Made by a program: the position numbers and the translations under genes | Shown: piece after piece, positions 11,923 through 42,940 of the stretch | Layout of the letters: each line of letters opens with the position of its first letter | Position numbering within the stretch: the first letter of the stretch is position 1 | Notes under the pieces: generated by a model | Told to the model about the DNA's origin: nothing | The model's database searches: none | Seen by the model: the letters and a program-made list of their open reading frames with translations, nothing else | NCBI GenBank assembly: GCA_900550105.1 | Contig: URQW01000004.1 | Location: 9,575 to 73,574 of the forward strand | From: an uncultured Pelosinus sp. | GTDB taxonomy: Bacteria > Bacillota > Negativicutes > UMGS1260 | Length of the DNA: 64,000 bases | Direction: 5' to 3'

Positions 11923-13320
11923 TTATTTTGCCACAGCCTGCGAATCTTGCGCTGTTTTCCCCTCATGCATAATACGGGCCGTCAAAAAGATGACAAGTTC
12001 TTGCCCTTCCCTGTTTTCCACTCTATGAGTAAACAAGCCGCCGATCAAAGGAATATCTCCTAAAATGGGCACCTTCGTTGTTTGTTCTGTTGCCAGCCGA
12101 TTCATTAAACCGGCTATTGCAATCGTTTCACCATCAGCCATACGGACCTCCGAACTGGCAATCCGCTTCGAGAATTGATAGGTTTTAAGGTCACTCACCC
12201 AAGTGGGCGCGCTGACTTCCATGTCAATCTCAGCCGTAATAAAATGATCGGCTTGAATATAGGGTATATAGGTTAAAATAATGCCGGAATCGGCATAATC
12301 ATAGCTTGTTGTTGTCTCAACCTCTGTGGTTGTCGTCTTCGGAATTGGTAAGGTATCGCCAACATGGATAAAGGCGGCTTTGCCGTTTACAGCCATAATT
12401 CGCGGTTTGGCCACTAGCTTAGCGCTTCCCTCCGTCAGCAAAGCCTCTAGCGTTGCTGCATAGGAAACGGCATAGCGACCGCCTTGCGGGTTGCGTCCAA
12501 ATAAAAGAACGCCGCCATAATTAGAGCTATTTGTCCCAGTCCCTTGCGGAATATCAGACCAGCGCCACTCTAAGCCGAGCTTTTCAGCCGCCTGTTTATC
12601 GATACTGACGATTTGCGCCTCTACCATGACTTGCGGCGCAGCTACATCTAATTTTTCAACTAAAGCCTGCAGCGCTGCCGCGGCTCTGTCGGAAGAACGA
12701 AAAACCAGGGAATTCGTTGTGGCATCAATTTTAATAGATTCATAAGCCCGATCCACCTTTAGGGCCTGTTTTGTATTCAAGCCAGTGATGGGCGACAATT
12801 TTTTGGTCTTAACAGCGCCTTTACGCCCACTTGGTTCGGAAACAGCAGTTTGATTATCAAACTCGGCCGTTGATCCAGCCGACGCCGCCGCTTGCGAATT
12901 GCCTTTATCCCGCAGTAGCAGCGCCGCCTTATCAATCACCTCTTCGGCTCGCACATGATGCAACATGATAATATGCAGCGGCTCAATGAGCCGTTTTTCT
13001 TTCGCCTCATCGACAATGAGAACATCACTACCGCGCTGTTCATAGCGCAATCCCTTGGCTTCTGTGATTAAGTCAAGAACCTGCGCAAAAGGAAGGTTCT
13101 GTACGGCAAGCGAGATTTTTCCCTGGACCGAATCATCAATGACCATGTTGACCGAACTGAGGCGTCCTAACGCAAGCAACACATCGCGAACTGACGCATC
13201 TGACGCAGTTAAAGTAACAAGGGGACTAAGCTCGCCAAGACGGGTACTCCCAACGAGTAGCCATAGTACACAAAAAAGTATTCGATACAATCCAAAATGG
13301 CATTTTTGCTGTTTGCTCAC
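11923..13320 (-). CDS. secretin (GspD/PilQ/CpaC superfamily outer-membrane channel)
   Basis: 465 aa. Signal peptide, N-terminal secretin-N-like domain, C-terminal secretin domain motifs (VPILGDIPLIGGLF). Confidence 0.75.
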   Translation of the reverse strand: MSKQQKCHFGLYRILFCVLWLLVGSTRLGELSPLVTLTASDASVRDVLLALGRLSSVNMVIDDSVQGKISLAVQNLPFAQVLDLITEAKGLRYEQRGSDVLIVDEAKEKRLIEPLHIIMLHHVRAEEVIDKAALLLRDKGNSQAAASAGSTAEFDNQTAVSEPSGRKGAVKTKKLSPITGLNTKQALKVDRAYESIKIDATTNSLVFRSSDRAAAALQALVEKLDVAAPQVMVEAQIVSIDKQAAEKLGLEWRWSDIPQGTGTNSSNYGGVLLFGRNPQGGRYAVSYAATLEALLTEGSAKLVAKPRIMAVNGKAAFIHVGDTLPIPKTTTTEVETTTSYDYADSGIILTYIPYIQADHFITAEIDMEVSAPTWVSDLKTYQFSKRIASSEVRMADGETIAIAGLMNRLATEQTTKVPILGDIPLIGGLFTHRVENREGQELVIFLTARIMHEGKTAQDSQAVAK

Positions 13321-17747: not shown

Positions 17748-18644
17748 ATGAAGTTTGTGCACCGTTTTACAAAGAAAACCACTCTAGTTACACTTGCGCT
17801 CATGATCGGCTGCTTTCTGCTGACTGTAGCCACAGCTTCGGCAGCGCCGAAGCGAATTGGTATCACTAAGTTTGAAACAAACAACTACACAGTCCGTGTT
17901 CGCGGCGGCTACTACGATATTGGACTTGGCGCTTCCGATATGCTCACAACTGAACTGGCCAAAAATAGAAATTTTGAAGTCGTAGAAAGAGAACAAATTC
18001 GTTCCGTATTACAAGAGCAGGGTTTTGGCGCATCTGGCGCAGTGGATCCTAGCACGGCCCCGCAGATGGGCAAACTGCTTGGCTTAAAATACATTGTCTA
18101 CGGTAAAATTCTGTCAGCTGGCGCAGAAGAAAAACATGACCAAATTATGGGCCTGCATATTGATAAATTAACAGCCAAAGTCCGTATTTCCGTACGCATG
18201 ATCGATGCTACGACAGGCTCCATCGTCTGGGCGGATCAGGTCGAAGGGAAAGTCGAAAAAAGCGGCGGCGGCATTGAAGGCCTTGGCGGCACCTCAACTG
18301 AAGTATCAGCAAGCATTTATGACGATGCTCTGCATGGCGCCATTAACCAGATTGTCAGCCACATCAATCAAGGCGCTCCTACGGAAGGCGCCATCGCGAA
18401 AGTCAGTGGCCGCAAAGTATATCTTGACATCGGCGTAGACCAAGGCGTACAGCCTGGCCAAACCTATGTAGTATATCGTGAAGGCGAAGCCATTACGAAT
18501 AGCGCTGGTCAAGTCATCGGCGTTGATAAAACCGATCTTTGCACGGTAAAAGTGACCCGCGTAGACGGCGGCATGGCCATCGCTGAAATTCAAGACAAAA
18601 GTATGCCGCTATTGCAAGCTGGCGATAAAGTCCGTTCCAACTAA
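17748..18644 (+). CDS. CsgG-family lipoprotein/outer-membrane channel-like protein
   Basis: 298 aa. Signal peptide (possible lipobox LMIGC). CsgG-like block GASDMLTTELAKNRNFEVVEREQ. Start may be the GTG at 17757, which has better RBS spacing. Confidence 0.65.
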   Translation: MKFVHRFTKKTTLVTLALMIGCFLLTVATASAAPKRIGITKFETNNYTVRVRGGYYDIGLGASDMLTTELAKNRNFEVVEREQIRSVLQEQGFGASGAVDPSTAPQMGKLLGLKYIVYGKILSAGAEEKHDQIMGLHIDKLTAKVRISVRMIDATTGSIVWADQVEGKVEKSGGGIEGLGGTSTEVSASIYDDALHGAINQIVSHINQGAPTEGAIAKVSGRKVYLDIGVDQGVQPGQTYVVYREGEAITNSAGQVIGVDKTDLCTVKVTRVDGGMAIAEIQDKSMPLLQAGDKVRSN

Positions 18645-18757
18645 ATTTACAGACTAACTAAATCTACAGAATCATTAGGTTAATAGATTCTAAAACTGAT
18701 CATAACCAAAAGGCGCTCTAACTTAGAGTGCCTTTTTCAGAAGGGAGTTTTTTTTGC

Positions 18758-19855
18758 ATGAAAAAGAGTCTTCTGGCAAGCTTTTTTGCTCTCTTACTAT
18801 TTCTAACAGCGCAGACCGTTTTTGCGCAAAGTGTGACCGTCACAGGCAATGGCGTCTCCCGTGAAGATGCGATTCGCGATGGATTACGTCTAGCCGTGGA
18901 ACAGGCCGTCGGCACCTTAGTTGACTCACAAACCTTATCGCGAAACAACCAGATTGTAAACGATGAAGTCTATACAAAATCATCAGGCTTTGTACAGGAT
19001 TATCAGGTCGTCAGCGAACAGCGAAATGGCGGTGTTTACACCGTGGATCTTGCTGTCACTGTGGATACGGATCCAAGCTCGGCCTTATACACGAAGCTGC
19101 AAAAGCTGCGCCTCATCGAAGTAATGCTGCGCGATCCGCGCATTGCCGTCTTTATTCCCGAGCGCTACCAATCTGGCGCTTTCCCTGATCCGGCTGGTGA
19201 AACAGCCGTCATCCAGAAATTGCGTGATGCCGGCTTTAAGCATGTCCTTGACGCGCGTCAGACAGCCAATATTCAAGAAAATCAGATTGTCCGCGCCATC
19301 CTTGACGGTAACCTCCGTGACGCTCGCTCCATGGCTACCACCTATCAGCTAGACTTCGTCATTGTCGGCGAAGCTACGGCCCAATATGCTGGCGATCTGT
19401 ATGACAGTGGCATTAAATCAAGTCGGGCTCATATTGACGCCAAGGTACTCAAAGTGGATACAGGTGAAATTATTGCCGCGCAAGGTTTTGAAGCAGGCGG
19501 CGTTGACATTACGCCGCGGATTGCCGCTAAAAAAGCCCTAGCTGCGGCGGGAGCGCAAGTCGGCGATTATATGGTCCAACAGCTCATGCAGTATGCAAGT
19601 GATCCTGATAAACCACTGACCATCTATGTCAGCCGCGCTAGTTTTAATAAGCTTAACCTTATGCAAAACGCGTTAAAACAAGTACCTGGCGTAAAATCAG
19701 TCTTTTTGCGTTCTTATACGAATGGCGTCGCCCAAATTGACGTGACCTATACAGGTTCGCCAAAAGTCCTGGCTGATGCACTACAAAACACGGACGGCGT
19801 ATCGCTTGATGTAACGTCTATCTCGAACAGCACAGTGCAAGTCACGCTGCGTTAA
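18758..19855 (+). CDS. secreted protein with repeated LPP20-like domains
   Basis: Start set at MKKSLLASFF, a clear signal peptide ending AQS. Two internally similar modules (AIRDGLRLAVEQAVG / AKKALAAAGAQVGDY). Confidence 0.45.
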   Translation: MKKSLLASFFALLLFLTAQTVFAQSVTVTGNGVSREDAIRDGLRLAVEQAVGTLVDSQTLSRNNQIVNDEVYTKSSGFVQDYQVVSEQRNGGVYTVDLAVTVDTDPSSALYTKLQKLRLIEVMLRDPRIAVFIPERYQSGAFPDPAGETAVIQKLRDAGFKHVLDARQTANIQENQIVRAILDGNLRDARSMATTYQLDFVIVGEATAQYAGDLYDSGIKSSRAHIDAKVLKVDTGEIIAAQGFEAGGVDITPRIAAKKALAAAGAQVGDYMVQQLMQYASDPDKPLTIYVSRASFNKLNLMQNALKQVPGVKSVFLRSYTNGVAQIDVTYTGSPKVLADALQNTDGVSLDVTSISNSTVQVTLR

Positions 19856-23464: not shown

Positions 23465-23820
23465 AGTGACTTCTCTGTTACTAATACATGCCGCCTCCCT
23501 TCAGACTAGAACAAGTGTAATTTAATTTTATGAGCTGTAAATTAACTTTATTTTTGGAATATTTTCTTATTTCTATTATACCACAAAATTTGCCTATACC
23601 TTAAATTTATGAATCTCCGCCTGAAGATTATCGGCTAATTTGGCCAAAGCCTAACTAGCCGAAGCAATTTGCGCGATGGCTGTTTTTCTCTAAACATTCT
23701 CTGCTACAGCTCCTTTAGTATACAATCAGCCAAACTTATTGCCTTTACATTCTTCGTCAAAAAACACCAATTACCTTCGAAACATTACATGACTTATTTC
23801 CTGTTTTATAAAAATACTAC

Positions 23821-23863
23821 AAAAAAACAGCAAGCGCTGTCGATTTAGCGCTTGCTGTTTTTA
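23821..23863. terminator. bidirectional rho-independent terminator (acagcaagcgct / agcgcttgctgt, flanked by A7 and T5)
   Basis: 12-bp perfect stem read from the sequence. Confidence 0.7.
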
Positions 23864-23914: not shown

Positions 23915-25306
23915 TTACTTCGCTGACCAATTCTGGCCATCAGCCGCTACTTGATACATTTTGCCGCCGATATTAAAAGAGTTCAACTGGTAGCCGCCGC
24001 CCTTCGCCCAGTCCTGGAGCGTCAGAGTGTCACTACTGCCATCTAGCGAAATGACCAGATCATTGCCACTCAGCTGACTATGGATGCTACTTAGGGGTGT
24101 ATTATAGAGCATCAAGGCATCTTGACTATTATCAGAACGTCCCGTAATCACATCCTGCCCATCCGTCCGCCCCCACCAATAGGTATCCTGACCGCTACCG
24201 CCAGTCATAGTATCACTCCCAGCAGCGCCCCACATTTGACTGCCGCCAGAACCGGCTATCATAATATCGTCACTGCTACTACCGCGAAGTATCGAGTTAC
24301 CACTGCTTGCCCCTATGACTTCATGAAGACCATTTGCTTTATAGCAAGGCTTCGACAAATCAATTACAGCTTCTTCTCCATCATTCCAAGCCACAACGCT
24401 CCTACCAAAAACCCAGCCTTGAATTCTTGCTTTCGCATCCATACCATACCAATCACTTAAAGTTAAACTGGAACCATCAGCGATTGTTAGCACCAAATCA
24501 TCAGTCTGACGTCCCAAGGTATAACTGCCACGAGTAATATTAGAGAAATAAAGAGCATCACCGCTATTATTTCCTGCCTGGTAGACTCTATCATGACCAT
24601 TATTCTGGGCCCACCAGAAACAGTTACTGCCACTGCCGCCCATCAACTGGTCATCACCGCCAGCGCCCCAGAGTTGATTATTACCGCTGCCGCCGTCAAT
24701 CGCATTATTGCCACCGTTACCGCGAAAGATATCATCCCCACTACCTCCCACAATATTGCGGCTCTCACTCCCTGTCAGATTCACGGTCTGCGGCATCGTA
24801 GTATCAGAAAAATTAAGTGTGACGTCCTGCATTGGATCATGCGTAATTGATAACGTCTTGACTACACCGCTTGAAACAGATAGTCCATCTAAATCCGTAA
24901 TGGTCACATAAAACATAACCTCGCGTGAATTGGCGTCAGCCTGAGGTATAAATGCAAGATTTGCCAAAAGAAGATTCACCTGAGGTACAGTAAGCAGGTT
25001 CTCACAGGTATAAGTTCCAGTAGCGCTATCATAGTGATCAGAAATCCCTGCCAAACCAGCTGCATCCGCCACTTTCACCTGATCTCCTGGCAACAACTTT
25101 CCCATTAACGCTACAGTAACTGTGTCGCATCCTCCACTCGGGTCAGTTACATATAGCCCCTGGGAAAAAATATTCTTTATCTCGCTATCTTTCAAAGAAT
25201 CCTCGGTTGAACCGCGTTGCGTAATCATCGGCCCAGCATCAACCGGCGGGTACTGAGCCGCTAGAACAAAACTTATGTTTTCGCCCATATCTAAATTTTG
25301 AAACAT
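23915..25306 (-). CDS. RTX-type calcium-binding repeat protein, short paralog of the downstream giant adhesin (T1SS substrate-like)
   Basis: 463 aa. No signal peptide. GGxGxD nonapeptide repeats. C-terminal ~300 aa almost identical to the 1277-aa neighbour. Confidence 0.75.
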   Translation of the reverse strand: MFQNLDMGENISFVLAAQYPPVDAGPMITQRGSTEDSLKDSEIKNIFSQGLYVTDPSGGCDTVTVALMGKLLPGDQVKVADAAGLAGISDHYDSATGTYTCENLLTVPQVNLLLANLAFIPQADANSREVMFYVTITDLDGLSVSSGVVKTLSITHDPMQDVTLNFSDTTMPQTVNLTGSESRNIVGGSGDDIFRGNGGNNAIDGGSGNNQLWGAGGDDQLMGGSGSNCFWWAQNNGHDRVYQAGNNSGDALYFSNITRGSYTLGRQTDDLVLTIADGSSLTLSDWYGMDAKARIQGWVFGRSVVAWNDGEEAVIDLSKPCYKANGLHEVIGASSGNSILRGSSSDDIMIAGSGGSQMWGAAGSDTMTGGSGQDTYWWGRTDGQDVITGRSDNSQDALMLYNTPLSSIHSQLSGNDLVISLDGSSDTLTLQDWAKGGGYQLNSFNIGGKMYQVAADGQNWSAK

Positions 25307-25495
25307 AAACTACGCCTCCCTGCACCGCCTATTCCCGGCTAACCAAAATGGGGCCGCGACATTAAGGAAATTTTCGCTTAGTGCCACAGCCCGATACGAC
25401 TTACCGTGAAATACATTCTCGTTTTAACATATCATAAATAGTTTAACTTGTACACGATCTATATGAATAGGGACTATTCTTACCTTGTTAGAATC

Positions 25496-28400
25496 TTACT
25501 TTGCTGACCAACTCTTGCCATCAGCCGCTACTTGATACATTTTACCGCCGATATTAAAAGAATTCAGTTGATAGCCGCCGCCCCTCGCCCAGTCTTGAAT
25601 CGTCAGCGTGTCACTACTGCCATCCAGCGAAATGACTAGATCATTGCCACTCAGCTGGCTGTGGATACTACTTAAAGGCGTGTTGTACAGCATGATGGAG
25701 TCCTGACTATTGTCCGCCCGACTCGTAATCACATCATGATCATCGCTCGATCCCCACCAGTACTCATCCTTACCGCTGCCGCCTGTCATAACGTCATTCC
25801 CGGCGCCACTCCACATCTGACTGCCACCAATTCCCCCTAACAATACATCATCACCGCCGCTGCCGCGCAATATACTATTGCCAGCGGCACTACCAATGGC
25901 AATATGCATATCTAATTGCGCATAGCAAGGCTTTGCCAAATCAACAATAGCTTCTTCCCCATCATTCCAGGCGACAGCGGTCCTACCAAAAACCCAGCCT
26001 TGAATTCTTGCTTTCGCATCCATACCATACCAATCACTTACGGTTAAACTAGAGCCATCGGCGATTGTTAGCACCAAATCATTCGCCTGCCGCTCTAAAA
26101 TATAGCCCCCACGACTAATATTGGAGAAATAAAGGGCATCACCGCTATTATTTCCTGCCTGTTGGACTATATCATGACCGTTATTCTGGGCCCACCAGTA
26201 ACCGTTACTACCACTACCGCCAATCAGTTTGTCATCACCAGCAGCGCCCCAAAGCTGATTATTGCCGCTGCCGCCATCTAACACATTATTCCCGCTGTTG
26301 CCGCGAAACACATCATCGCCGGCGCCGCCTACTATATTGCGGTTCTCACTGCCCATGAGATTCACTTCTTGCGCCGTCGTCGAACCAGAATAATTATCGG
26401 TCGGCGTAGAATCCGTTGAAGAGCCGCCGGAACCGCCACTGCCGCCGGAACTTGCCGCCGTTACACTCACTGTTATATTTGCGCCAAGGGAAGGAACATT
26501 CGATCCATCTTTCGTCTGTATTTGTACTGTTGCCGCACTAGTCTGGCCCGCTACGGGATGATAACTCAGAGAACGTAACAGCGTCTGCGCAGCGGCTACA
26601 GACATCGAATTCCAACTATAAGTCCTAGTTGTTCCTGCCCCAGTACCGCTACTACTCGCAGTCGCCGATTGCGAAGCGCTTATCGTGCCTTCACCCGTTA
26701 CAGTCACAGTAATTGCTTCGGTCTCCTGAAAGTCCGGATCAGTTAGCGTAGCCTGAGGACACAATGCTAAAGTTCCCGTATTCTGTACTGATTGCGTTGC
26801 GAGAATCTGTGATAGAACAGGCGTATCATTTATAGAGGTAATCCGTACTGACATAGACGAGTTCAGACTTGGTGTATCACTCGAAGTAATGGTAAAGGCA
26901 TCTGTCGACGAATCGCCGGCCAATGTCAAGTTTGCTACAGGCTGAAATAAAATGTTGCCGCTCTGTAAGTCAGCTTGAATCTGGACTCCTGTACCTTTAA
27001 GAGTCAGCTTCCCCTGAGGGCCGATAGAAACCTGGGATTGAAAAGATGCATCACTCGCTAAGGAAAAAACGCCCTTTGAAGGATCACCGTTATTAATAGT
27101 AAGTGAACTATTAGCCGAACCGCCGCTTAATTGAATCCCCGAAAATAAGTTATTTGCTGTCCTGTCATCATCGATAGAAATAGAAGCTGGAACCTGAGTA
27201 ATTCTTAAGTCATGAGTTGTGTCATGAGTAATAGAAAAACTTGTTACATTTGATTGACTAAATGACTGGTTTTGTGAATCTGTAATCGTCACATTACAGG
27301 ATACAAATTGCGGATTAGCCGAAGCTTGCGGTATAAATTCAAGATTATTTAAAAGCACACTCGCCTGAGCTGCCGTAAGATTACTACAAGTATATATTCC
27401 AGTAGCACTGTTGTAGTATTCCGTAATTCCGGTCAAACCACTTCCAGCAGCCAAATGCAGATTCGCTCCAGATCCCCCTCCATTTAACTGTACAGTAACT
27501 GTCTCCGTATCACCAGCATCAGGGTCAGTCACCGTCGCCCCATTATAAATAAGCTTCACCGTTTCACTATCTTTTATAGTCTTGACAGGACCAGGAGTAA
27601 TCAAGCCAAACATCACTGTCGGCGCATCATCCACAGGCGTAATTTTGACAGATTGAGTGTTTGTGGCACTGCCACTACCGCCAGTGTTCGTTGCCGAAAT
27701 ACCAAAAGTATCTGTTTGTGTTGTTCCAAGCGAAATTGTATTTTGGGGAATCGCCACCGTAATACTGCCAGCTCGCTGCAGATAAGTTGTAATATCGCCA
27801 CTAGTTCCAGTTAGTGTAATCGTATTATTAGCTACTGTCACGCCAACACCCGGGCTGCCTGAAGTAAGCGCCGAAAAGCCGAAACCTTGAGGAATAGTAA
27901 GCGTAGCCATTACTGTACCAGATCCAGTAATTGTTACTTGGCTAAAAGGATTCATTCTCTCCACTGTATCATTATAATCTAGCTCGGTAGCCGTTACTGA
28001 AATTGACGGCGCCCTATACAGCTCGACAACAGCTACATCTGTTGTTACCGGAGTAGCTAGCGTCGCTCCCAAACTATCTTTGATACTTGCACTAATCGTT
28101 CTATCTCCACTGCCAAGAGATGTCGCGGTAAAAGTCATATTCTTTAGTGTAGTCTGTATTTGAGCTACAGTGCCTATATAAGTATAAGTATAAGTGTGAG
28201 TTGCAGCATCATAACTGCCACTGCCCCCAGAGCTCGCAATAGAATCGCCGCTAGTATAATTACTGCTAATCGTTACAGTGAGTGTATCTACATCGTTACT
28301 ATCAATAGGGTCATCACTAACAGTCATACTACCAAACAGAGAAACAGAAGCCCCTCCTATGGTAAAAGTAGGACTCGACATGGTCCCCGAAAGCATTGGC

Positions 28401-29329
28401 GCCTGATTATTATGAATGGTGAGCTGCTTTGATGCTGATTGCCCTGCTGCATCGGTTGCCGTAAGTGTAAACGTTGTATCCTGGGTTTGGTCCACAGTAA
28501 CAGCCAGACTTCGCAGCTGGCTTTGTAGGGCAGCCGCCCCATTGCCTGTCAAGGTAAGAGGCGTCGAGCTATTATTTGTATAGGTAGTTCCATTATATTT
28601 AAAGCTGCCAGAACTCACCGCAACAGTTACTGTCATGGGATCATAGTAATTCTCATCTGTAAGCGTAACCGCCGAAAAAACAGTTTGCGAATTTGGGCTA
28701 GCTGCTACGGCAACCTTAGGAGTCGGAATTGCTAAAACAGGGCCCTGCTCCGTCCACTTTGTTACGGGAGAAACAGTTCGCGGACTGGATTGCATACTGT
28801 TATCATAATATAAAAGTCCAGAAAAAGGATCCCATACACCATAGGTTACCGTGATCGGTATTGAAGACTTATCACTCCAATTGCCTTGCTTTACAAACAC
28901 AAGTTTATTTTGTAGTAGATCATTCACATCATTCATTGTACCGACAATTTGGTAATAAGGCACACCAGGATCAGGAATATAGTATAAAATAGCGCCAGTA
29001 GTATTGGTGGGGTCTTGCCAGAGATTATCTTCAGGCACCCCATTAGCCAAAGTACTATAGACGATTTGCCCCGTCTTACCCAGATATCCACTAAAATAAT
29101 CGCTTGCAGTACGTTCCGAAATCGTTCTAGGCCTTCCTGACGCATCAAGGGCTGTCAAAAAGCCATCGCCATTCAGTGTCTGCAGATCAATCTTAAGTCC
29201 TACTAAATCCGTACTTACGTTATTAGAACCCGAAACATTCTTAAAAGGATGTTGAACCGATAAATCAATCGTCGTACTTGAATTAATATTGTTTAAACTT
29301 ATAGCCATAACTACGCCTCCGTGCTCCAT
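25496..29329 (-). CDS. giant RTX-type surface adhesin with tandem Ig/cadherin-like beta domains and C-terminal calcium-binding repeat + T1SS secretion module
   Basis: 1277 aa. T/S/G-rich repeated ~100-aa modules. No N-terminal signal. GGAGDD.F.G..GN RTX repeats. Poly-Gly/Ser linker (SSGGSGGSGGSS). Confidence 0.75.
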   Translation of the reverse strand: MEHGGVVMAISLNNINSSTTIDLSVQHPFKNVSGSNNVSTDLVGLKIDLQTLNGDGFLTALDASGRPRTISERTASDYFSGYLGKTGQIVYSTLANGVPEDNLWQDPTNTTGAILYYIPDPGVPYYQIVGTMNDVNDLLQNKLVFVKQGNWSDKSSIPITVTYGVWDPFSGLLYYDNSMQSSPRTVSPVTKWTEQGPVLAIPTPKVAVAASPNSQTVFSAVTLTDENYYDPMTVTVAVSSGSFKYNGTTYTNNSSTPLTLTGNGAAALQSQLRSLAVTVDQTQDTTFTLTATDAAGQSASKQLTIHNNQAPMLSGTMSSPTFTIGGASVSLFGSMTVSDDPIDSNDVDTLTVTISSNYTSGDSIASSGGSGSYDAATHTYTYTYIGTVAQIQTTLKNMTFTATSLGSGDRTISASIKDSLGATLATPVTTDVAVVELYRAPSISVTATELDYNDTVERMNPFSQVTITGSGTVMATLTIPQGFGFSALTSGSPGVGVTVANNTITLTGTSGDITTYLQRAGSITVAIPQNTISLGTTQTDTFGISATNTGGSGSATNTQSVKITPVDDAPTVMFGLITPGPVKTIKDSETVKLIYNGATVTDPDAGDTETVTVQLNGGGSGANLHLAAGSGLTGITEYYNSATGIYTCSNLTAAQASVLLNNLEFIPQASANPQFVSCNVTITDSQNQSFSQSNVTSFSITHDTTHDLRITQVPASISIDDDRTANNLFSGIQLSGGSANSSLTINNGDPSKGVFSLASDASFQSQVSIGPQGKLTLKGTGVQIQADLQSGNILFQPVANLTLAGDSSTDAFTITSSDTPSLNSSMSVRITSINDTPVLSQILATQSVQNTGTLALCPQATLTDPDFQETEAITVTVTGEGTISASQSATASSSGTGAGTTRTYSWNSMSVAAAQTLLRSLSYHPVAGQTSAATVQIQTKDGSNVPSLGANITVSVTAASSGGSGGSGGSSTDSTPTDNYSGSTTAQEVNLMGSENRNIVGGAGDDVFRGNSGNNVLDGGSGNNQLWGAAGDDKLIGGSGSNGYWWAQNNGHDIVQQAGNNSGDALYFSNISRGGYILERQANDLVLTIADGSSLTVSDWYGMDAKARIQGWVFGRTAVAWNDGEEAIVDLAKPCYAQLDMHIAIGSAAGNSILRGSGGDDVLLGGIGGSQMWSGAGNDVMTGGSGKDEYWWGSSDDHDVITSRADNSQDSIMLYNTPLSSIHSQLSGNDLVISLDGSSDTLTIQDWARGGGYQLNSFNIGGKMYQVAADGKSWSAK

Positions 29330-29573: not shown

Positions 29574-30413
29574 TTACCCTACCAGTTTTTCAGCTGTATT
29601 TTGTCGCAATTGAAACTCAGCCAAGGGATAACCAAAAACTTCCCCAAAAGCTGCTTCCACGCCTGCTTGGACTGACAAACGGTAAAAAGTCAAAACCTTG
29701 GCAAAGCCGTAATCATCCCAAAGCTGCAACACCATAAGAGCTGCCGTCCGATAAGTCACCTGCGTACCATAGGTCTGTAGCGCTTGCGCCCAGCCATCGC
29801 GGCTAGCTATCATCGCCAGCGACGGTGAACCGGACTTAGCCCCCGCTAGCATCGCCTGCCAGCGAGCCTTATATTGATCCACACTGCGCCGCCCCGTTTT
29901 TTCCGTAACATGGACGGCCACCGCATCAGCCATGCCTTCGACCAGCCAGACCGCATCTTTCGGAAAGCCGATTTGATTTTGATATTGATGAACCATTTCA
30001 TGCGACACAAGAAAAATCCGGTCACTATCACTATTAGCCGCGGCGGCATTTCGCAAAATTAAATGGCCGCCCGATACCGCGTCTGTCGTTCTCGCCCAAC
30101 GCGCCGCAGCCAACTCGTCCAAGTGAAAAATACGTTGCAACTCCTGCTGATAGCGAGTACGATCCGTCAGTAGTCGTACAGTTACCGGTTGTGCCAAAGA
30201 AAACCCAAACGATTCCTTACAAAAAGTTGTCGTCTCTGTTAGGGCCAAATCCGTATCAGTCACCATAAGAGGATCTACCCCCGCTTCAGCGACAACTTGA
30301 TACTCTACTGGAGTATCGGCAGCCAAAGCCATGCTAGTCATCGTAACAAAAGCTATCACCACGGCGATCCAAAACTTGCTTACCAAACGGCCTTGTCTAA
30401 GCCACTGTTTCAT
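29574..30413 (-). CDS. secreted/membrane-anchored putative zinc metallopeptidase (HExxH...E gluzincin-like motif)
   Basis: 279 aa. N-terminal signal/TM. HEMVHQYQ followed by EGMADA 18 residues later. Confidence 0.4.
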   Translation of the reverse strand: MKQWLRQGRLVSKFWIAVVIAFVTMTSMALAADTPVEYQVVAEAGVDPLMVTDTDLALTETTTFCKESFGFSLAQPVTVRLLTDRTRYQQELQRIFHLDELAAARWARTTDAVSGGHLILRNAAAANSDSDRIFLVSHEMVHQYQNQIGFPKDAVWLVEGMADAVAVHVTEKTGRRSVDQYKARWQAMLAGAKSGSPSLAMIASRDGWAQALQTYGTQVTYRTAALMVLQLWDDYGFAKVLTFYRLSVQAGVEAAFGEVFGYPLAEFQLRQNTAEKLVG

Positions 30414-37272: not shown

Positions 37273-39447
37273 TTACTTACTGTCACCTAAGGAAGAATCA
37301 TGGGACGATTCCCGTTCCTGCTGGTTATATAAGTCATAATAGCTGCCCTTACTTGCTATAAGATCTTCATGGGTTCCCGACTCTACGATCTGTCCATGAT
37401 CCATCACAAAGATCTTGTGACAATGACGAACGGTAGAAAGTCGATGCGCAATCATAATCATCGTACGACCGGCAGCAATTTGGGCCAAATTATTCATAAT
37501 AATTCGCTCAGACTCATAATCCAGAGCGCTAGTGGCTTCATCAAAAATCAAGATTTTCGGATCGGTCATCAAAGCCCGGGCAATTGCAATGCGCTGCCGC
37601 TGTCCACCTGAAAGCAAAGCGCCACGCTCGCCGACAGGCGTATCATAGCCTTCAGGCAGTTGTTCAATAAATTCATGAGCGCCTGCCGCCTGTGCCACGC
37701 GCACAATATCTTCTAAGGTTGCATGGGGCGCGGCAACAGCAATATTTTCGCGAATGGAACCGCCAAATAGGAAGTTTTCCTGCAGCACTACACCGATCTG
37801 TCGCCGCAGCCACGCTGGTTCTACCTGTACAAGATCGACACCGTCAATCAACACACGGCCTGCTTCGGGCACATACAAACGCTGAATCAATTTTGTCAGC
37901 GTGCTTTTTCCGGAACCGGAGCGACCTACAATCCCGATCGACTGCCCAGCAGCAATATGAAGTCCCACTTGTCGCAGCGTTTCACTGCCGTCTTTACGAT
38001 AGCGAAAGGTCACACGATCCAGCAGAATTTCGCCAGACAAAGCCGGTAGCGTTGTTCTAGCTGGATCAAAGGAAGGTTCCGGCGTTTCCCTCATAATATC
38101 GCCAAGGCGATCCACAGATACCATGGTCTGCTGGAATTGCTGCCACATACTGACAAGGCGGAGAATCGGTGCAATGACCTGGCCAGCCATCATTTGGAAG
38201 GCAATGAGTTCGCCGACTGACAATTTTTCATCAAGGACGGCGTGAGCGCCCACCCACAAAATGGCGATCGTAAAGAGATTCTGTAGCAAGGTTCCTAAGT
38301 TTCCCGCTACATTGCCAACTTGTATAGCGGAAAAAGAAGCTTTGGCATAGCGGGCCAAAAGCCCTTCATACTTATCAATAAACTGTTTCTCTACAGCCAT
38401 AGATTTAATCGTCTGAATCCCCGTGACTGCTTCAATCAAAAAAGACTGATTTTCAGCACCAGCAAAAAACCGCTTATTCAAGCGATCTTTCAGAATCGGT
38501 GTCACAATGAGACTTAAGAGCAAATAAAGCGCCACTGTAATGCCTGTGACAATGCTCAGCATACCACTGTAGGCTACCATGACGGTCACATAAACGACGG
38601 CAAAGACCAGATCAAGCACGACAGTCAGAGCGGATCCAGTAATAAACTGTCGAATCGTATCAAGCTCCCTTACACGGGAAACTACATCACCAACTTGCCA
38701 CGTTTCGAAATACTTGATCGACAAAGTGGCGATCCGACGAAATAAATGACTGCCTAGCGTCACATCAATCTTATTCGTCGTATGAGTAAACAAGTAAGAT
38801 CGAAGCGCCGTCATCCAGGACTGGAAAAAGCTGACGAGTACCATGCCAAGTAATAAAATATCAAGCGTTCCTGTACTATGATGTACCAGGACTTTATCAA
38901 TGATAACCTGCATAAATAACGGACTAGCCAAACCGAACAGTTGTAATAAAAAAGAAATAAGCAAAACTTGCAGGAAAAACCGTTTATACTTGGAAATGAC
39001 CGGAATAAACCAGGACAACCCAAACTGTGCGGCCTGTTCCTTGAGGCCATAGCGGCGTGCTAGTAGAATCATTTCGCCGCTCCAGACCTCGAAAAACTTA
39101 TCAATCGTCACGGTAAAGGGCTGAGGCTGACAAGGATCATAAATGACAGCCTTTTGTCCGTCGCACTGCATCAGCAGGGCAAACGCGCCATTTTTTAAAA
39201 TAGCAATCGCCGGAAGGGGAAGTTTTCCAATCACTTCCCTTGCGGGTCTGAGTAGCCGCGCTTTGAGGCTTAAATCGCGAGCTGCTCGCAGCAAAGTGAC
39301 CGAATCCATGCCGCTATTCGAAACAACATAGGCTCTGGCAAGCTGCTCCCGATCAGCGGCTATGCCCAAGAGTTGGGCCGCTCCGACCAGGCAGGCAAGA
39401 CCTGTATCAATGGGGCGACCTGCTTTTTGTTCGCTATGATCTGCCAT
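37273..39447 (-). CDS. type I secretion ABC transporter (HlyB/RtxE-like): N-terminal C39-like domain + 6 TM + NBD
   Basis: 724 aa. GRSGSGKST Walker A, LSGGQRQR signature, ILIFDEATSALD Walker B. N-terminal ~130-aa peptidase-like domain apparently lacking the catalytic Cys position. Confidence 0.8.
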   Translation of the reverse strand: MADHSEQKAGRPIDTGLACLVGAAQLLGIAADREQLARAYVVSNSGMDSVTLLRAARDLSLKARLLRPAREVIGKLPLPAIAILKNGAFALLMQCDGQKAVIYDPCQPQPFTVTIDKFFEVWSGEMILLARRYGLKEQAAQFGLSWFIPVISKYKRFFLQVLLISFLLQLFGLASPLFMQVIIDKVLVHHSTGTLDILLLGMVLVSFFQSWMTALRSYLFTHTTNKIDVTLGSHLFRRIATLSIKYFETWQVGDVVSRVRELDTIRQFITGSALTVVLDLVFAVVYVTVMVAYSGMLSIVTGITVALYLLLSLIVTPILKDRLNKRFFAGAENQSFLIEAVTGIQTIKSMAVEKQFIDKYEGLLARYAKASFSAIQVGNVAGNLGTLLQNLFTIAILWVGAHAVLDEKLSVGELIAFQMMAGQVIAPILRLVSMWQQFQQTMVSVDRLGDIMRETPEPSFDPARTTLPALSGEILLDRVTFRYRKDGSETLRQVGLHIAAGQSIGIVGRSGSGKSTLTKLIQRLYVPEAGRVLIDGVDLVQVEPAWLRRQIGVVLQENFLFGGSIRENIAVAAPHATLEDIVRVAQAAGAHEFIEQLPEGYDTPVGERGALLSGGQRQRIAIARALMTDPKILIFDEATSALDYESERIIMNNLAQIAAGRTMIMIAHRLSTVRHCHKIFVMDHGQIVESGTHEDLIASKGSYYDLYNQQERESSHDSSLGDSK

Positions 39448-39450
39448 AGT

Positions 39451-40812
39451 CTATCTCTCCCTTAATCCTTCACTTTGATACTTGCGGAACGGATCAAGGA
39501 AGAACTCCATAATTCGTTTTTCACGGATTTTAATTTCTGCCGTAACGGTCATACCTGGCGTAAGCGGCTGATTGGCATCATTGACAAGGACATGTCCTTG
39601 ATCCATCGTCAACACGACGCGGTACTTGCGGTCTCTTTCCTTATCCTTTTGATCCTCAATGGCATCAGGACTGATTTCTGATACAACAGCCGACAATGTG
39701 CCGTACTTTTGGAAATTAAATGTGTCTACTTTCAAGGCGGCCGTCTGGCCGATTTTTACGAAGCCAATATCCTTATTAGCAACCCAAGCTTCTATTTCCA
39801 AGGTCGCGTCTTCCGGTACGATCGCCATGAGAGGCTGCGCTGCTGTTACAACACCACCGACCGTATGAATAGAAAGCTGACCAACACGACCATCAACCGG
39901 TGCTATAATACGGGCTAGACGATTCTTATCTTCCGCCTTTTTCAATTCTTCCGTATATTGCAAGAGCTGTTTGCGATCTTCTGTCAGCTTTGTATCAATA
40001 TCTTTATCATAAGAAGCTGAGGAATTTAAGAGGCGCTGACGGCTTTCTTCCATAGTGGCCTGACTTTTGGCAATCTCACCATCCTGGGCAATAACACTCT
40101 GCTCCAAGCTCTTGCGTTTTGCTCTTTGCTCTAACAATTGAAAATAAGCCACAGCATTTTGCTGATACAGCGTTTCACTGCGTTCTTCCATTTCTCTGGC
40201 AACTTCGAGCTGCTGAGCGTAATTTTCCCGATTTGCCTGAGCAGCCGCATAAGCCGCCGCACTTTGTTGAATCGTTGCTTGGCCTTCACCTAGCTTGGCC
40301 TGCCGTTCCATGAGCCAACTCTGATACAAACTCACCTGAGCAGCTAAATCCTTCGGATCAAGATCAGGCGACGTAGGTGGCGAGAAGGAGCTACCCGTTT
40401 TTTGGGCCATCAAACGAGCTATTTCGAGATTATAATAAGCAATCTGTTTGCGAATACTAGCTAAGTCCGCTTCTGACACCGTTCTATCCAGTTCTACCAG
40501 GACATCGCCTTTTTTCACAGTCTGTCCTTCTTGTACGTAAATCTGGCGAATCACACCTTTGTCTTCCGCCTGAATCACCTTTACCTGACCAGATGGAATG
40601 ACTTTGCCGTTAGCCACAGCTACTTCATCGACATGGCCAAGAAAAGACCAAAGTAACGCCGCTGCGAGCAGCACCATCAGTGAGAAAAGCAGCAAACGGC
40701 CTACTGGCGATGGCGGCGTTTCCGTCACTTCTAGTACAGCCGGCAAAAATTCTACTTCATCACGGGTCAGCTCATCTTGCTTTTTGGGGAAAATCCATTT
40801 TTTCCAATTCAT
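39451..40812 (-). CDS. HlyD-family type I secretion membrane fusion (periplasmic adaptor) protein
   Basis: 453 aa. N-terminal TM, long coiled-coil middle, C-terminal beta-barrel/lipoyl region. Confidence 0.8.
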   Translation of the reverse strand: MNWKKWIFPKKQDELTRDEVEFLPAVLEVTETPPSPVGRLLLFSLMVLLAAALLWSFLGHVDEVAVANGKVIPSGQVKVIQAEDKGVIRQIYVQEGQTVKKGDVLVELDRTVSEADLASIRKQIAYYNLEIARLMAQKTGSSFSPPTSPDLDPKDLAAQVSLYQSWLMERQAKLGEGQATIQQSAAAYAAAQANRENYAQQLEVAREMEERSETLYQQNAVAYFQLLEQRAKRKSLEQSVIAQDGEIAKSQATMEESRQRLLNSSASYDKDIDTKLTEDRKQLLQYTEELKKAEDKNRLARIIAPVDGRVGQLSIHTVGGVVTAAQPLMAIVPEDATLEIEAWVANKDIGFVKIGQTAALKVDTFNFQKYGTLSAVVSEISPDAIEDQKDKERDRKYRVVLTMDQGHVLVNDANQPLTPGMTVTAEIKIREKRIMEFFLDPFRKYQSEGLRER

Positions 40813-40813
40813 A

Positions 40814-42940
40814 TTATCCCTCTTGTTGTAAATATAAATGATAATATAAGCCCTGCAAAGCCATCAACTGGTCATGAGTACCAGCTTCAACCAGACGGCC
40901 GTGATCTAATACTGCAATGGCGTCAAAATTCTGTACTGTCGAAAGGCGATGAGCAATCATAAAGAAGGTGCGCCCAGCGCATATCTGTCCGAGATGATCC
41001 ATAATGATCCGTTCCGACTCATAATCAAGGGCGCTAGTAGCTTCATCAAAAATCAACACACGCGGATTAATCAAGAGTGCTCTGGCAATAGCAACCCGCT
41101 GACGTTGACCGCCAGACAGGGAAGCTCCCCGCTCACCCACTTTCGTATCATACCCCTCAGGCAATTCCAGAATAAATTCATGGGCACCAGCAATCTGCGC
41201 TGCCGCAATGACTTCACTCATAGACGCACTAGGCCGACTCAGGGCGATATTGTCACGAACGCTCCCATTGAAGAGATAGTTTTCCTGGAGGACTACGCCA
41301 ATCTGACTGCGTAGCCAATACGGCGGCACTGTGGCAATATCCATTCCATCGACTAACACGCGACCGCTGTCAGGTATGTACATATGCTGAATGAGTTTCG
41401 TCAGCGTACTCTTCCCAGAGCCAGAGCGTCCCACAATTCCTACCTTGGCGCCAGGAGGCACCTGAAAAGAAATATTCTCAAGTACAGGCGGCAAGTCTAA
41501 GCGATAGCGAAAAGCAATATTTTCAAAGACAATCTCGCCCCGTAAGGGAGGCGCGTCAGGTCGAACCGGCGCCAAGACTGGCTCTGCCTTTGTATTTAAA
41601 ATATCACTAAGACGCTCCATCGACAAAGCAGACTGCTGAACCTGCTGCCACATGCCGATGAGTGTCAATAGCGGCGAAGTGGCCTGTGCCGCTAGCATCT
41701 GAAAGGCAATAAACTGACCGAGAGTCATTTTGCCGTCCATGACGAGATGACCACCGACCCAGAGAATACTCATGGACGATAAAACCTGAATGACAGAAGC
41801 GCCGCCGTTAATCCCAATTCCGAGCTTTGCCGTATCAAAGGTTTTACCTACATAGCGGGCTAGCAAATTCTCCCACTTATGAACAAACTGCGGTTCCAAG
41901 GCCAAAGCCTTGATGGTATGCATACCAGTCACGGCTTCGACGAGAAAGGCATTGTTTGCCGCGCCAGCTTCCCACATGGTTTCAAGCCGTTTTTGGTACA
42001 AGGGCGTCACAAAAACATTCATGGCGAGATAAAAAGGAACTACCGCCAAGGCAACCCAAGTTAACAGCGGACTAAAGGTAAACATAACGGCAATAAAGAC
42101 CACAGAAAAAATCACATCTAAGATGACCGTAATTGCCGTACCTGTCAAAAACTCACGAATGCTGGCAAGAGCACCCACACGCATCATCGTATCGCCCACA
42201 CGGCGGTGCTCAAAGTAAGGCATTGGCAGGGCCGACAAGTGGCGAAACAGCCTTGTCCCTAAAATAACATCAAGCTTATTCGTCGTATGAGTCAATATGT
42301 AGGTACGTAAGATGCCCAAACCACATTGAAAGACACTTAACACCAAAAGAACCAGAGCTAAGATATCGAGGGTCGAGACACCATTATTGCCAATGACTTT
42401 ATCGACAATAACCTGCGTAAATAGAGGGACGACCACCCCAAAGAGCTGCAAGAAGAATGAAGCGGCAAAAACTTCCGCAAAATACTGTTTATAATGCATA
42501 ATAACAGCATAAAACCATTTGAGATTGTATTTACGAATGACTCGCTGCCAATCAAACTTGCGTGTAAAGAGTAGCAGCTCACCTGTCCATTCAGCAGCAA
42601 ACTCTTCCACTGGAACTGCTACAGGTTTTTCTTGTAATGGATCTGATACAAAAACATGTTTCTCGTTGTTCCAACCGACAACGACAAAATGCCCGTCTTT
42701 CATACGGGCAATAGCTGGTATAGGTATACCAGGCAATTCTTCGATTTTTACCCGTTTTGCTTGGGCCTGAAAACGATAATCCTTGGCAAGCTTCTGTAAG
42801 AAAAGCAGCGCCTCTTCTCCCTGCCAGCGGGCCGCTAAAATTTCCGGCTCCACTTTCACCTCTAGATAAGAAGCCGCAATCGAAAAACAAGTCAAGGCTG
42901 TCTTCTCTTGGGGACTCATTTCATTTCGTTTCGTTTGCAA
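40814..42940 (-). CDS. second type I secretion ABC transporter (HlyB/RtxB-like) with N-terminal C39-like domain
   Basis: 708 aa. GRSGSGKST, LSGGQRQR, LIFDEATSALD. Paralog of the 724-aa transporter. Confidence 0.8.
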   Translation of the reverse strand: MQTKRNEMSPQEKTALTCFSIAASYLEVKVEPEILAARWQGEEALLFLQKLAKDYRFQAQAKRVKIEELPGIPIPAIARMKDGHFVVVGWNNEKHVFVSDPLQEKPVAVPVEEFAAEWTGELLLFTRKFDWQRVIRKYNLKWFYAVIMHYKQYFAEVFAASFFLQLFGVVVPLFTQVIVDKVIGNNGVSTLDILALVLLVLSVFQCGLGILRTYILTHTTNKLDVILGTRLFRHLSALPMPYFEHRRVGDTMMRVGALASIREFLTGTAITVILDVIFSVVFIAVMFTFSPLLTWVALAVVPFYLAMNVFVTPLYQKRLETMWEAGAANNAFLVEAVTGMHTIKALALEPQFVHKWENLLARYVGKTFDTAKLGIGINGGASVIQVLSSMSILWVGGHLVMDGKMTLGQFIAFQMLAAQATSPLLTLIGMWQQVQQSALSMERLSDILNTKAEPVLAPVRPDAPPLRGEIVFENIAFRYRLDLPPVLENISFQVPPGAKVGIVGRSGSGKSTLTKLIQHMYIPDSGRVLVDGMDIATVPPYWLRSQIGVVLQENYLFNGSVRDNIALSRPSASMSEVIAAAQIAGAHEFILELPEGYDTKVGERGASLSGGQRQRVAIARALLINPRVLIFDEATSALDYESERIIMDHLGQICAGRTFFMIAHRLSTVQNFDAIAVLDHGRLVEAGTHDQLMALQGLYYHLYLQQEG

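Follow-up and report, generated by a model that had tools for sequence, protein, structure and literature searches.

In Neisseria meningitidis, FrpA and FrpC belong to a polymorphic RTX protein family whose paralogous members are secreted by the type I route and have large C-terminal RTX parts in common; the number of RTX blocks varies from member to member and the N-terminal parts are unrelated or rearranged (PMC3034196). For CyaA of Bordetella pertussis, it is established that export works by a calcium-dependent ratchet and that folding is templated by, and proceeds from, the C-terminal cap (PMC8486122, PMC9120197, PMC10511787). The RTX adhesins LapA, SiiE, MpIBP and BapA combine a C-terminal RTX part and type I signal with a tandem Ig-like extender. 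In Campylobacter fetus, the paralogous S-layer genes of the sap locus, whose products leave the cell by type I export, share one conserved end and recombine with each other; in these genes it is the 5' end that is conserved, and a single promoter, moved by inversion, generates the variation. In Caulobacter crescentus, the genes for the RTX protein RsaA, for its type I secretion (RsaD/RsaE) and for O-polysaccharide are clustered. After its secretion RsaA is anchored by the O-antigen, as described in a review that also cites Thompson 2002 for the sap genes (PMC3034196).

In a stretch of 64,000 nt (the window) from a diderm Firmicute of the Negativicutes, a Sporomusaceae bacterium, we analysed two RTX genes, a short one (S, 463 aa) and a long one (L, 1277 aa from the first ATG), which are real open reading frames on the minus strand, adjacent and co-oriented as the first-pass annotation had recognized. 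Each encodes a different passenger fused to the same 308-aa C-terminal module. The S protein is identical to NCBI MDU2063380.1, a 'calcium-binding protein' of a Sporomusaceae bacterium, and L has the accession MDU2063379.1. A third paralogue, P0002, is found beside smpB; the neighbouring enolase and SmpB proteins are sequence-identical to MDU2063591.1 and MDU2063596.1, of the same accession series as S and L, and all are recorded on a 419,975-nt contig. From these identical neighbours, the accession order and the shared contig record we infer that P0002 resides in the same genome. The whole is best explained, at a probability that we put at roughly 75%, by old paralogues with a selected export module, patchy exchange between them and type I export of their products.

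Such an arrangement is ordinary, as RTX paralogues that keep their C-terminal export device while the passengers diverge are well known. Like FrpA/FrpC, S, L and P0002 share a tail and differ in the number of RTX units (two, two and three) and in their passengers. The Frp proteins, however, share identical stretches, compared to 76% protein identity between S and L, come from a different phylum with different passenger domains, and possess a self-processing module and an FrpD partner, neither of which was seen for S/L. CyaA blocks IV-V (6sus, 5cxl, 9p0d) are likewise tandem beta-roll units with C-terminal caps, and the CyaA RTX region is the best match to the module in both sequence and fold, at an identity of just 23-28%; CyaA differs from S and L in its five blocks and in possessing enzyme, pore-forming and acylation domains. 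L resembles the LapA-type adhesins in its C-terminal RTX part, putative type I signal and candidate extender of tandem Ig-like domains, and its repeat domain recurs in giant multi-repeat proteins, L itself being small (1270 aa) with six diverged repeats. No N-terminal retention module was identified in the window, and neither a ligand-binding domain nor a LapG/LapD-type release control was found in L, S or the scanned window genes. The label 'adhesin', given in the first-pass annotation, is no more than plausible, from the repeat array. The gene cluster is reminiscent of the RsaA system, although no sequence relationship extends past the RTX repeats and two ABC genes are present here versus one in Caulobacter. 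Unlike the C. fetus sap genes, on which the idea of a cassette is modelled, S and L conserve the 3' export tail and are each equipped with start signals; neither an inversion system nor a variant allele was seen at the locus.

Table 1. Position of the features discussed (nt of the window) and the basis or extent of each
Feature	Position	Strand	Remarks
Gene L, long RTX protein	25496-29329	-	1277 aa from first ATG; ORF list and translation
Orphan N-terminal region of L	28718-29308	-	~200 aa
Six diverged beta-sandwich repeats of L	26456-28717	-	aa 205-958; ~110-125 aa each; domain HMM
Common export module in L	25499-26422	-	codons 970-1277 of the 1277-aa ORF
Low-divergence patch in L	25928-26200	-	partner of the S patch
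60-nt exact run, L copy	25981-26040	-	partner of 24400-24459
Gene S, short RTX protein	23915-25306	-	463 aa; ORF list and translation
Single beta-sandwich (Ig-like) passenger domain of S	24842-25228	-	aa 27-155; AF2 pLDDT 75-90
Common export module in S	23918-24841	-	codons 156-463; ungapped alignment with L
RTX block 1 of S module	~24572-24781	-	
Cap 1 of S module	~24332-24571	-	
RTX block 2 of S module	~24131-24331	-	
Cap 2 and C-terminal tail of S module	23918-24130	-	
Low-divergence patch in S, candidate gene-conversion tract	24347-24619	-	~270 nt, codons 230-320
60-nt exact run, S copy	24400-24459	-	identical to 25981-26040; encodes ...SDWYGMDAKARIQGWVFGR
Intrinsic-terminator-like hairpin and T-run	23816-23841	-	downstream of S; strong
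HlyB-type ABC gene, first	40814-42940	-	TIGR01846; Pfam C39, ABC_membrane and ABC_tran
HlyD adaptor gene	39451-40812	-	TIGR01843 377 bits (cut-off 209); Pfam HlyD_3
HlyB-type ABC gene, second	37273-39447	-	TIGR01846; Pfam C39, ABC_membrane and ABC_tran
Third RTX protein of the window	43073-45787		904 aa

The presence of a shared C-terminal RTX and secretion module, already noticed in the first-pass annotation, was borne out by the alignment of the last 308 codons of S and L in gap-free register (offset 1581 nt) and by Pfam matches to HemolysinCabind (PF00353; 43.4 bits for S and 44.7 bits for L, cut-off 23) and HCBP_related (32 and 32.8 bits, both above cut-off); RTX-family matches in NCBIfam were partial only, and BapA_N matches remained below cut-off and are located in the cap rather than at the N-terminus. 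The nonapeptide repeats of S start 9 residues apart, at aa 187, 196, 205, 214 and 223. In the AF2 model of S (pLDDT 87, above 90 in the module) two beta-rolls are each followed by a small sheet, and the module is accordingly predicted to consist of two cap-closed RTX beta-roll blocks and a conserved tail (Table 1). Foldseek matched it to RTX blocks IV-V of CyaA (6sus, E 7e-9) and to CyaA block V (5cxl, 9p0d) with a TM score of 0.75-0.82 and an rmsd of 2.1 A, and a sequence search likewise returned CyaA RTX block V with its cap as best PDB match.

Upstream of the module, the first-pass annotation had seen only one weaker shared domain, in agreement with the single BLAST match of S aa 21-218 to L aa 565-749 (38% identity). 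It had described an Ig-like array that the short gene lacks; six beta-sandwich repeats of ~120 aa are indeed found in L, and one in S. The copies in L were placed by the domain HMM at aa 215-305, 327-428, 498-564 (weak), 575-702, 710-833 and 837-956. The S passenger, all-beta plus one helix in the AF2 model, is closest to L repeat 4 (48% identity over aligned positions) and gave weak Foldseek matches to cohesin-like and PrgB Ig-like domains; overall, the S and L passengers show 30-48% protein identity and next to no DNA similarity. In an exhaustive search, 266 representative proteins, many of them giant multi-repeat proteins, matched the L repeat region only, with matches annotated as Big_9, Cadherin_4 and Cadherin_5. 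The N-terminal ~200 aa of L, with a pLDDT of ~32 in a single-sequence AF2 prediction, had no family match and were not covered by any match among 1.84 billion representatives.

A presumed export system for these proteins is at hand in the window, where three genes in the order HlyB-HlyD-HlyB lie 8-17 kb upstream of S and L on the same strand; the two HlyB-type genes score 834 and 909 bits against TIGR01846 (cut-off 725). No match to a TolC-like/OEP family was obtained among the scanned window ORFs of at least 150 aa. In many organisms the TolC-like gene is unlinked. Neither an acyltransferase gene nor a hydrophobic domain is present at the S/L locus. The last 58 codons are nearly identical in S, L and P0002, and this conserved tail would constitute an uncleaved type I secretion signal. 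S and L are probably calcium-binding RTX proteins exported by the nearby type I system; they would pass through the HlyB-HlyD-HlyB machinery 8 kb upstream, and calcium-driven folding may start at the C-terminal cap and act as an export ratchet, as in CyaA. The RTX and type I secretion genes of the window are clustered with an O-polysaccharide pathway, and the third RTX protein encoded there (904 aa) is acidic, lacks cysteine and has strongly biased codons, which are hallmarks of S-layer proteins.

With respect to expression, a GGAGG motif at 29316-29320 precedes an ATG at 29308 in L and public gene calls give L 1270 aa (P0121), so that this ATG is probably the true start. S possesses an intact reading frame (ATG and 463 uninterrupted codons) with a strong ribosome binding site (GGGAGG at 25315-25320, -9 to -14 from the ATG), and the ribosome binding site context GGAGGCGTAGTT is common to both genes. 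No terminator-like site was detected in the 189-nt spacer between L and S, nor did a sigma-70 scan detect a consensus promoter upstream of L or in this spacer. Because no terminator separates the genes and a strong one follows S, L and S are probably co-transcribed.

Throughout the module, S and L are similar to an extent far beyond chance (BLAST, E = 0), with a DNA identity of 80% in the 911-nt BLAST alignment and of 77.5% across all 308 codons, at a protein identity of 75.6%. These values do not reach the ~90% that the first-pass annotation had ascribed to the 3' ends, a level which is approached in two sub-segments alone, 24347-24619 (87%) and 23918-24091 (90%). Synonymous divergence over the module amounts to dS ~0.83, with dN 0.17 and dN/dS ~0.2 (0.06 for the 58 codons at the 3' end); segment by segment, dS was estimated at 1.30, 0.41, 0.77, 2.63 and 0.52 from 50-90 codons each, near saturation in places, and the second RTX block, at dS 2.6, has a DNA identity of only 66%. 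The segments best conserved in DNA are those best conserved in protein (caps and tail). Since dN/dS is low and dS partly near saturation, S and L are old paralogues whose 3' likeness is mainly due to purifying selection acting on the export and folding device that they have in common.

Superimposed on this selection, a patch of low divergence was found within the module, with a dS of ~0.4 compared to 1.2-2.6 in its flanks and a pS of 0.33 compared to 0.66 (Fisher P = 1.6e-4). P0002 places this patch in context. In the patch, S-L dS is low and both S and L are separated from P0002 by a dS above 1.5 (70 informative sites group S with L, 14 L with P0002 and 9 S with P0002), whereas in the flanks the nearer relative of L is P0002, not S. 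In the second RTX block it is L-P0002 dS that is low, both pairs with S standing at 2.6; in the last two segments dS(L,P0002) is 0.67 and 0.31 versus 2.63 and 0.52 for dS(S,L), the last 130 codons of L are nearer to P0002 than to S, and L shares 85% identity with P0002 in the final 373 nt, including an exact run of 56 nt. A three-sequence walk confirmed that the nearest paralogue switches along the module, as the observed value exceeded those of all 20,000 permutations (P<5e-5). No single tree fits the module of S, L and P0002, and these incongruent segments therefore point to at least one old gene-conversion event: the module is a mosaic, which one or more non-reciprocal exchanges between S, L and P0002, presumably by gene conversion, would explain, judging by these three paralogues and one distant out-group. 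The alignment gives S and L two RTX units, and P0002 and the out-group P0003 three; the junction of the RTX-plus-cap unit missing from S and L falls inside the patch. The patch also contains the 60-nt exact run, which the first-pass annotation had rightly noticed but with its first interval off by one (correctly 24400-24459), the two strings as given not being identical. This run is longer than amino acid conservation explains (codon-shuffle P of 0.004 in the module and 0.005 within the patch), RNA structure gave no significant signal there (z of -1.7, -1.4 and +0.7), and it may represent a later micro-conversion.

The mosaic could also be read without any conversion, the uneven divergence of old paralogues then reflecting local differences in mutation or in constraint, with synonymous sites among those constrained. 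This is in line with the coincidence of conserved DNA and protein segments, with the shortness of the segments and with the conservation of the C-terminal tail in all three paralogues. However, the ranking of low dS reverses between pairs (S-L in the patch, L-P0002 in the second RTX block) and site-specific constraint cannot explain a mosaic with opposite rankings; moreover, the amino acids do not lead one to expect the 60-nt run, which shows no RNA structure signal, and the grouping of L with P0002 in the flanks is at odds with the two-unit architecture common to S and L. We therefore consider this reading unlikely. Conversely, exchange might have a larger role, S, L and P0002 being a recombining family of surface proteins in which the exact runs of 56-60 nt in the export tails anchor the reshuffling and resizing of passengers, for instance by unequal crossover between L and S or by gain and loss of 369-nt repeats in P0002, and whose products decorate an RTX-type S-layer that the 904-aa protein would form, anchored on the O-polysaccharide which the surrounding cluster makes. 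P0002 was indeed encountered in versions of 594 and 717 aa in different assemblies and contains near-identical 369-nt repeats, from which it follows that repeats in this family either change copy number or collapse in assembly. We regard so extensive a scheme as rather improbable; if true, the Negativicutes would have an RTX-based S-layer system with variation built into it.

Some features of S are suggestive of a longer L-like gene in decay, of which a non-functional remnant, 5'-truncated and internally deleted, is carried along downstream of L: S begins in the final part of a repeat domain (by eye, its aa 11-42 look like L aa 557-587) and retains a single repeat, and P0002 has a truncated start of the same type. 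Yet its uninterrupted reading frame with a strong ribosome binding site, a module dN/dS of 0.2, well-packed AF2 domains (pLDDT 87) and the fact that a type I substrate requires only its C-terminal part for export (PMC3034196) make decay very unlikely. Still less credence can be given to a recent tandem duplication with 3' ends kept near-identical by ongoing gene conversion, as proposed in the first-pass annotation. The tandem, co-oriented arrangement, the 60-nt run, the high identity of patch (87%) and tail (90%) and the ribosome binding site context in common would fit, but the synonymous divergence is too high (dS 0.83 at 78-80% DNA identity, 2.6 in the second RTX block at 66% identity, and still ~0.4 in the best patch), the passengers are at 30-48% protein identity with hardly any DNA similarity, and the last 130 codons of L are nearer to a non-adjacent paralogue than to S. 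Judged by the refuting condition set in the first-pass annotation itself, most of the module is at the identity of old paralogues under purifying selection; what survives of the proposed homogenisation is some gene conversion, visible in the patch and the paralogue switch, and not its 'near-identical', 'recent' or 'ongoing' character (dS 0.83 overall, 1.2-2.6 in the flanks, ~0.4 in the patch).

That S serves as a donor cassette for antigenic or phase variation of an exposed L, like silent surface-protein cassettes elsewhere, is scarcely credible: 60 nt of identity do exceed the usual minimal length for homologous recombination and P0002 does occur in 594- and 717-aa versions, but S is a complete gene with its own strong ribosome binding site under purifying selection, homology is confined to the conserved export tail and excludes the exposed passenger, no recombinase, invertase or inverted-repeat arrangement was present among the genes scanned, and the contigs with the locus differ by 1 nt at most. 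The cross-strain comparison suggested for this purpose covered six such contigs (99.995-100% identical), metagenome assemblies that represent in effect one population; among 15 billion proteins clustered at 90% identity, S and L each stand alone in their cluster, and therefore no variant or chimeric allele is on record.

Old paralogues with a selected export module and patchy exchange thus make the S/L locus a clean case in which selection on the export module is separated from patchy conversion by means of synonymous divergence. The nearest database relative of such a gene can be a paralogue in the same genome, which alters how comparisons of this kind are to be read. The locus also puts on record that the O-polysaccharide cluster of a Sporomusaceae bacterium contains a HlyB/HlyD-type system for three or four presumed RTX substrates. 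For diderm Firmicutes of the Negativicutes type there are hardly any descriptions of type I secretion or of RTX surface proteins, and a limited literature search on RTX proteins and type I secretion in Negativicutes found no paper. Finally, S and L are both acidic, as RTX proteins are (pI 4.19 for S and 4.27 for L), but, unlike the 904-aa protein with its S-layer hallmarks, contain cysteines and have an ordinary codon usage.

The last 308 codons of the short (S) and long (L) RTX genes, hereafter the module, carry the RTX repeats and the presumed export tail and align without gaps at an offset of 1581 nt. The first-pass annotation had put the identity of these 3' ends at roughly 90 percent, a figure reached or approached only in codons 230-320 and 406-463 of S; over all 308 codons the DNA is 77.5% identical (80% over 911 nt by BLAST) and the protein 75.6%. 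The perfect run of 60 nt does exist, at 24400-24459 versus 25981-26040, the first interval having been shifted by one in the earlier reading, and a weaker upstream domain is indeed the sole other similarity between the proteins (S residues 21-218 versus L residues 565-749, 38% identical).

Both S and L contain RTX nonapeptide repeats and an HCBP_related domain above the Pfam cut-off, and in a PDB sequence search residues 330-443 of S align to RTX block V of CyaA, including its C-terminal cap. Modelled with AlphaFold from a 30-sequence alignment (mean pLDDT 87), S has an N-terminal beta-sandwich followed by two beta-rolls with a small sheet after each; the top Foldseek match is CyaA blocks IV-V (6sus, E 7e-9), and block V alone matches the model with a TM of 0.75-0.82 and an rmsd of 2.1 A. 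Because of these matches, the module is predicted to consist of two RTX-block-plus-cap units and a C-terminal tail, a unit structure that is the same as that of CyaA, and its internal 438-nt periodicity is this unit.

Features of the S and L locus and its surroundings (positions in the window; identities are DNA identities of S with L)
Feature	Position	Strand	Remark
Strong terminator	23816-23841	(-)	past S
S ORF	23915-25306	(-)	463 aa
S codons 406-463	23918-24091		90% identity
S codons 321-405	24092-24346		66% identity
S codons 230-320	24347-24619		87% identity
S codons 176-229	24620-24781		78% identity
S ribosome-binding site GGGAGG	25315-25320	(-)	ahead of the S start
L ORF	25496-29329	(-)	1277 aa counted from first ATG
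Putative membrane-anchored HExxH protease	29574-30413	(-)	279 aa; immediately upstream of L
Second HlyB-type ABC gene	37273-39447	(-)	above curated NCBIfam cut-off
HlyD gene	39451-40812	(-)	above curated NCBIfam cut-off
HlyB-type ABC gene	40814-42940	(-)	above curated NCBIfam cut-off
Third RTX protein	43073-45787	(-)	904 aa; directly upstream of type I secretion genes
Surface/O-polysaccharide cluster, rmlABCD and Wzm/Wzt	30410-63562 (62687-63562 down to 30410)	(-)	co-oriented with L and S

The true start of L is most likely the second ATG, at 29308, with GGAGG just ahead of it at 29316-29320; a start there would give a protein of 1270 aa, in agreement with the product of the public gene calls (P0121). 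Just before the ATG, S (25308-25319) and L (29309-29320) have in common a 12-nt start context on the (-) strand, GGAGGCGTAGTT, embedded in otherwise unrelated upstream DNA and possibly left over from a 5' end that the two genes once shared. The host of the sequence is a metagenome-assembled Sporomusaceae bacterium of the class Negativicutes, and two public contigs carry the locus with 100% and 99.995% identity to the window across 21.4 kb. Assembly chimerism was rejected, since the two assemblies differ by 1 nt in 21 kb and since the paralogues share no identical stretch longer than 60 nt.

A search of 5.8 billion proteins gives P0002 (594 aa) as the closest relative; its gene lies beside smpB on a contig other than that of the window (L003, 10001-11785). 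The enolase and SmpB encoded next to it have the same sequences as MDU2063591.1 and MDU2063596.1. These accessions run in one series with MDU2063380.1 (S) and MDU2063379.1 (L), and all these records lie on a contig of 419,975 nt, so P0002 is a third paralogue in the same organism, about 210 genes away. Because the neighbour proteins place P0002 in the same MAG/species, reading it as an orthologue from elsewhere was rejected, and with it the idea that S and L duplicated before a species split; the argument from mosaicism still holds, with paralogues as the things compared. Outside this organism the family has a single member, P0003 (718 aa, 42% identical; L004, 10001-12157), whose singleton gene is flanked by trmO and a sensor kinase gene. 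When S, the L passenger (the part N-terminal to the module) and full-length L served as queries in word-indexed protein searches, no close relative beyond these two was returned. Scanning the GTDB representative genomes gave nothing with the module and only RTX proteins of 26-28% identity with a four-sequence alignment; the JGI metagenome scan gave distant RTX proteins only, whose identity over most of the module did not exceed 31%.

By the Nei-Gojobori method, the 308 codons of the module have a pS of 0.50, a dS of 0.83 and a dN of 0.17 (dN/dS about 0.2), with S-L dS values of 1.30 in codons 176-225, 0.41 in codons 226-305, 0.77 in codons 306-335, 2.63 in codons 336-405 and 0.52 in codons 406-463, where dN/dS is 0.06. 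A module dS of 0.83, rising to 2.63 by segment, contradicts the recent duplication with near-identity that had been proposed; S and L are old paralogues under purifying selection, not a recent duplicate.

Along the module, the nearest neighbour switches among S, L and P0002. In codons 226-305, 70 informative sites unite S with L, compared to 14 uniting L and 9 uniting S with P0002, and dS is at least 1.5 between either gene and P0002 versus 0.41 for S-L. In codons 336-463 the corresponding counts are 30, 49 and 23, with L-P0002 dS values of 0.67 and 0.31 compared to 2.63 and 0.52 for S-L. Since the ranking of the pairs reverses between segments, unequal constraint cannot explain the mosaic. 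A three-sequence walk delimits the S-L block to codons 230-320 (the patch, a candidate gene-conversion tract), the observed value being reached in 0 of 20,000 permutations, and between S and L by themselves pS drops from 0.66 in the flanks to 0.33 in the patch (Fisher P = 1.6e-4). Moreover, S and L have two units each compared to three in both P0002 and P0003, and the junction at which S and L lack a unit falls within the patch, the pattern that would be expected from a deletion transferred by conversion. The 60-nt exact run exceeds expectation even within the patch (P = 0.005) and may be a later micro-conversion; RNA structure as a reason for this identity was tested and not significant. L and P0002 in turn have a 56-nt exact run in common near the tail. 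From these sequence comparisons, at least one non-reciprocal exchange among S, L and P0002 is well supported, and the exchange events are old (dS 0.3-0.4). The first-pass annotation is hence borne out in part, both in what it observed and in how it read it: conversion is supported, as a patchy and old process, and recency, near-identity and a cassette role for S found no support.

As for that cassette role, in which S would serve recombinational variation of L, four observations argue against it: the gene is complete and has a ribosome-binding site of its own, the homology to L is in the conserved tail rather than in the exposed part, the window genes scanned include no recombinase or inverted-repeat arrangement, and neither S nor L clusters with any variant or chimeric allele. 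The features that define a variation cassette were not found here. Tandem Repeats Finder returned nothing between 23 and 46 kb, and Rfam had no match in the whole window. Within the S/L/P0002 family, length varies at the P0002 locus only (P0277-P0280), where assemblies give either 594 aa with one N-domain or 717 aa with two 123-aa domain copies that differ by one residue, a near-identical 369-nt repeat; three more versions are truncated by contig ends and several assemblies break there. Either a real difference in copy number or collapse of the repeat during assembly could account for this, and a database look-up of the 717-aa variant gave no record. In P0003, the two internal caps are closer in protein sequence to each other (48%; dS 1.44) than to those of P0002 (41-49%; dS >3), which hints at within-gene homogenisation or independent duplication.

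With a domain HMM built from S, L, P0002 and P0003, six repeat copies were located in L (residues 215-305, 327-428, 498-564, which is weak, 575-702, 710-833 and 837-956) and one in S, nearest to L repeat 4; the copies are 23-48% identical to one another. Searched exhaustively with HMMER, 1.84 billion representatives yielded 266 proteins matching the L array, many of them giant multi-repeat proteins. Pfam assigned no family above cut-off to the array or to the top repeat-domain matches, giving weak Big_9 matches only; since annotated matches of the array bear Big_9, Cadherin_4 and Cadherin_5 domains, the earlier wording "Ig-like repeat array" is a fair one. The N-terminal ~200 residues of L (28718-29308 (-)) have no detectable homologue among the 1.84 billion representative proteins, and single-sequence AF2 of residues 1-207 (pLDDT about 32) allowed no fold assignment. 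That L and S are adhesins is a guess, and LapA-type membership is not established.

L and S are probably one transcript, and no terminator was found in their 189-nt spacer; beyond the terminator of S, a PPDK regulator and PPDK follow on the same strand. The polysaccharide cluster upstream encloses the secretion genes and contains many glycosyltransferases (several of them GT2) and methyltransferases, a Wzt with Wzt_C, an FkbH-like protein, ManC, PGM/PMM and an acyltransferase of the MBOAT family together with its membrane partner of 541 aa. On either side of the single HlyD gene lies an ABC gene of the HlyB subfamily; the two have C39-like N-terminal domains and 49% mutual identity, pointing to either a heteromeric ABC component or two classes of substrate. 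The 904-aa RTX protein has a pI of 4.4, is cysteine-free, Gly/Thr/Ala/Asp-rich and codon-biased (GC3 0.23 versus 0.38-0.43 for S and L), and comprises about five or six units of RTX block plus cap, with 26-32% identity to the S/L module; such features are hallmarks of an abundant S-layer-type RTX protein. The 279-aa protein combines a hydrophobic N-terminal segment with the zinc-protease motif HEMVH; its matches to the BSP and M1 peptidase families are sub-threshold only, and it might process the RTX proteins.

On every feature that this analysis could test, save a linked TolC, S and L conform to the RTX class of type I substrates. Beyond what was observed here (domain make-up, neighbouring secretion genes, purifying selection and the mosaic), S and L may be exported C-terminus first through the HlyB/HlyD system, whereupon extracellular calcium would fold the C-terminal cap and then the beta-rolls and so keep the protein from sliding back, a mechanism established in CyaA (PMC8486122, PMC9120197, PMC10511787). 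The common tail may have been retained because all substrates share one machine. By analogy with RsaA of Caulobacter (PMC3034196), one could speculate that the 904-aa protein assembles on the O-polysaccharide into a surface layer, L and S having accessory roles at the surface. In the FrpA/FrpC family, the C-terminal RTX part is shared, block number varies and the N-termini are unrelated (PMC3034196). The arrangement of S, L and P0002 matches this type of RTX paralogue family.

Near the polysaccharide cluster we also noted a secretin gene at 11923-13320 (-) and a pair of CsgG/LpoB-like and FlgT-like lipoprotein genes at 17748-19855 (+). An encapsulin shell protein gene (Linocin_M18, E 1e-65) lies at 8743-9579 (-).
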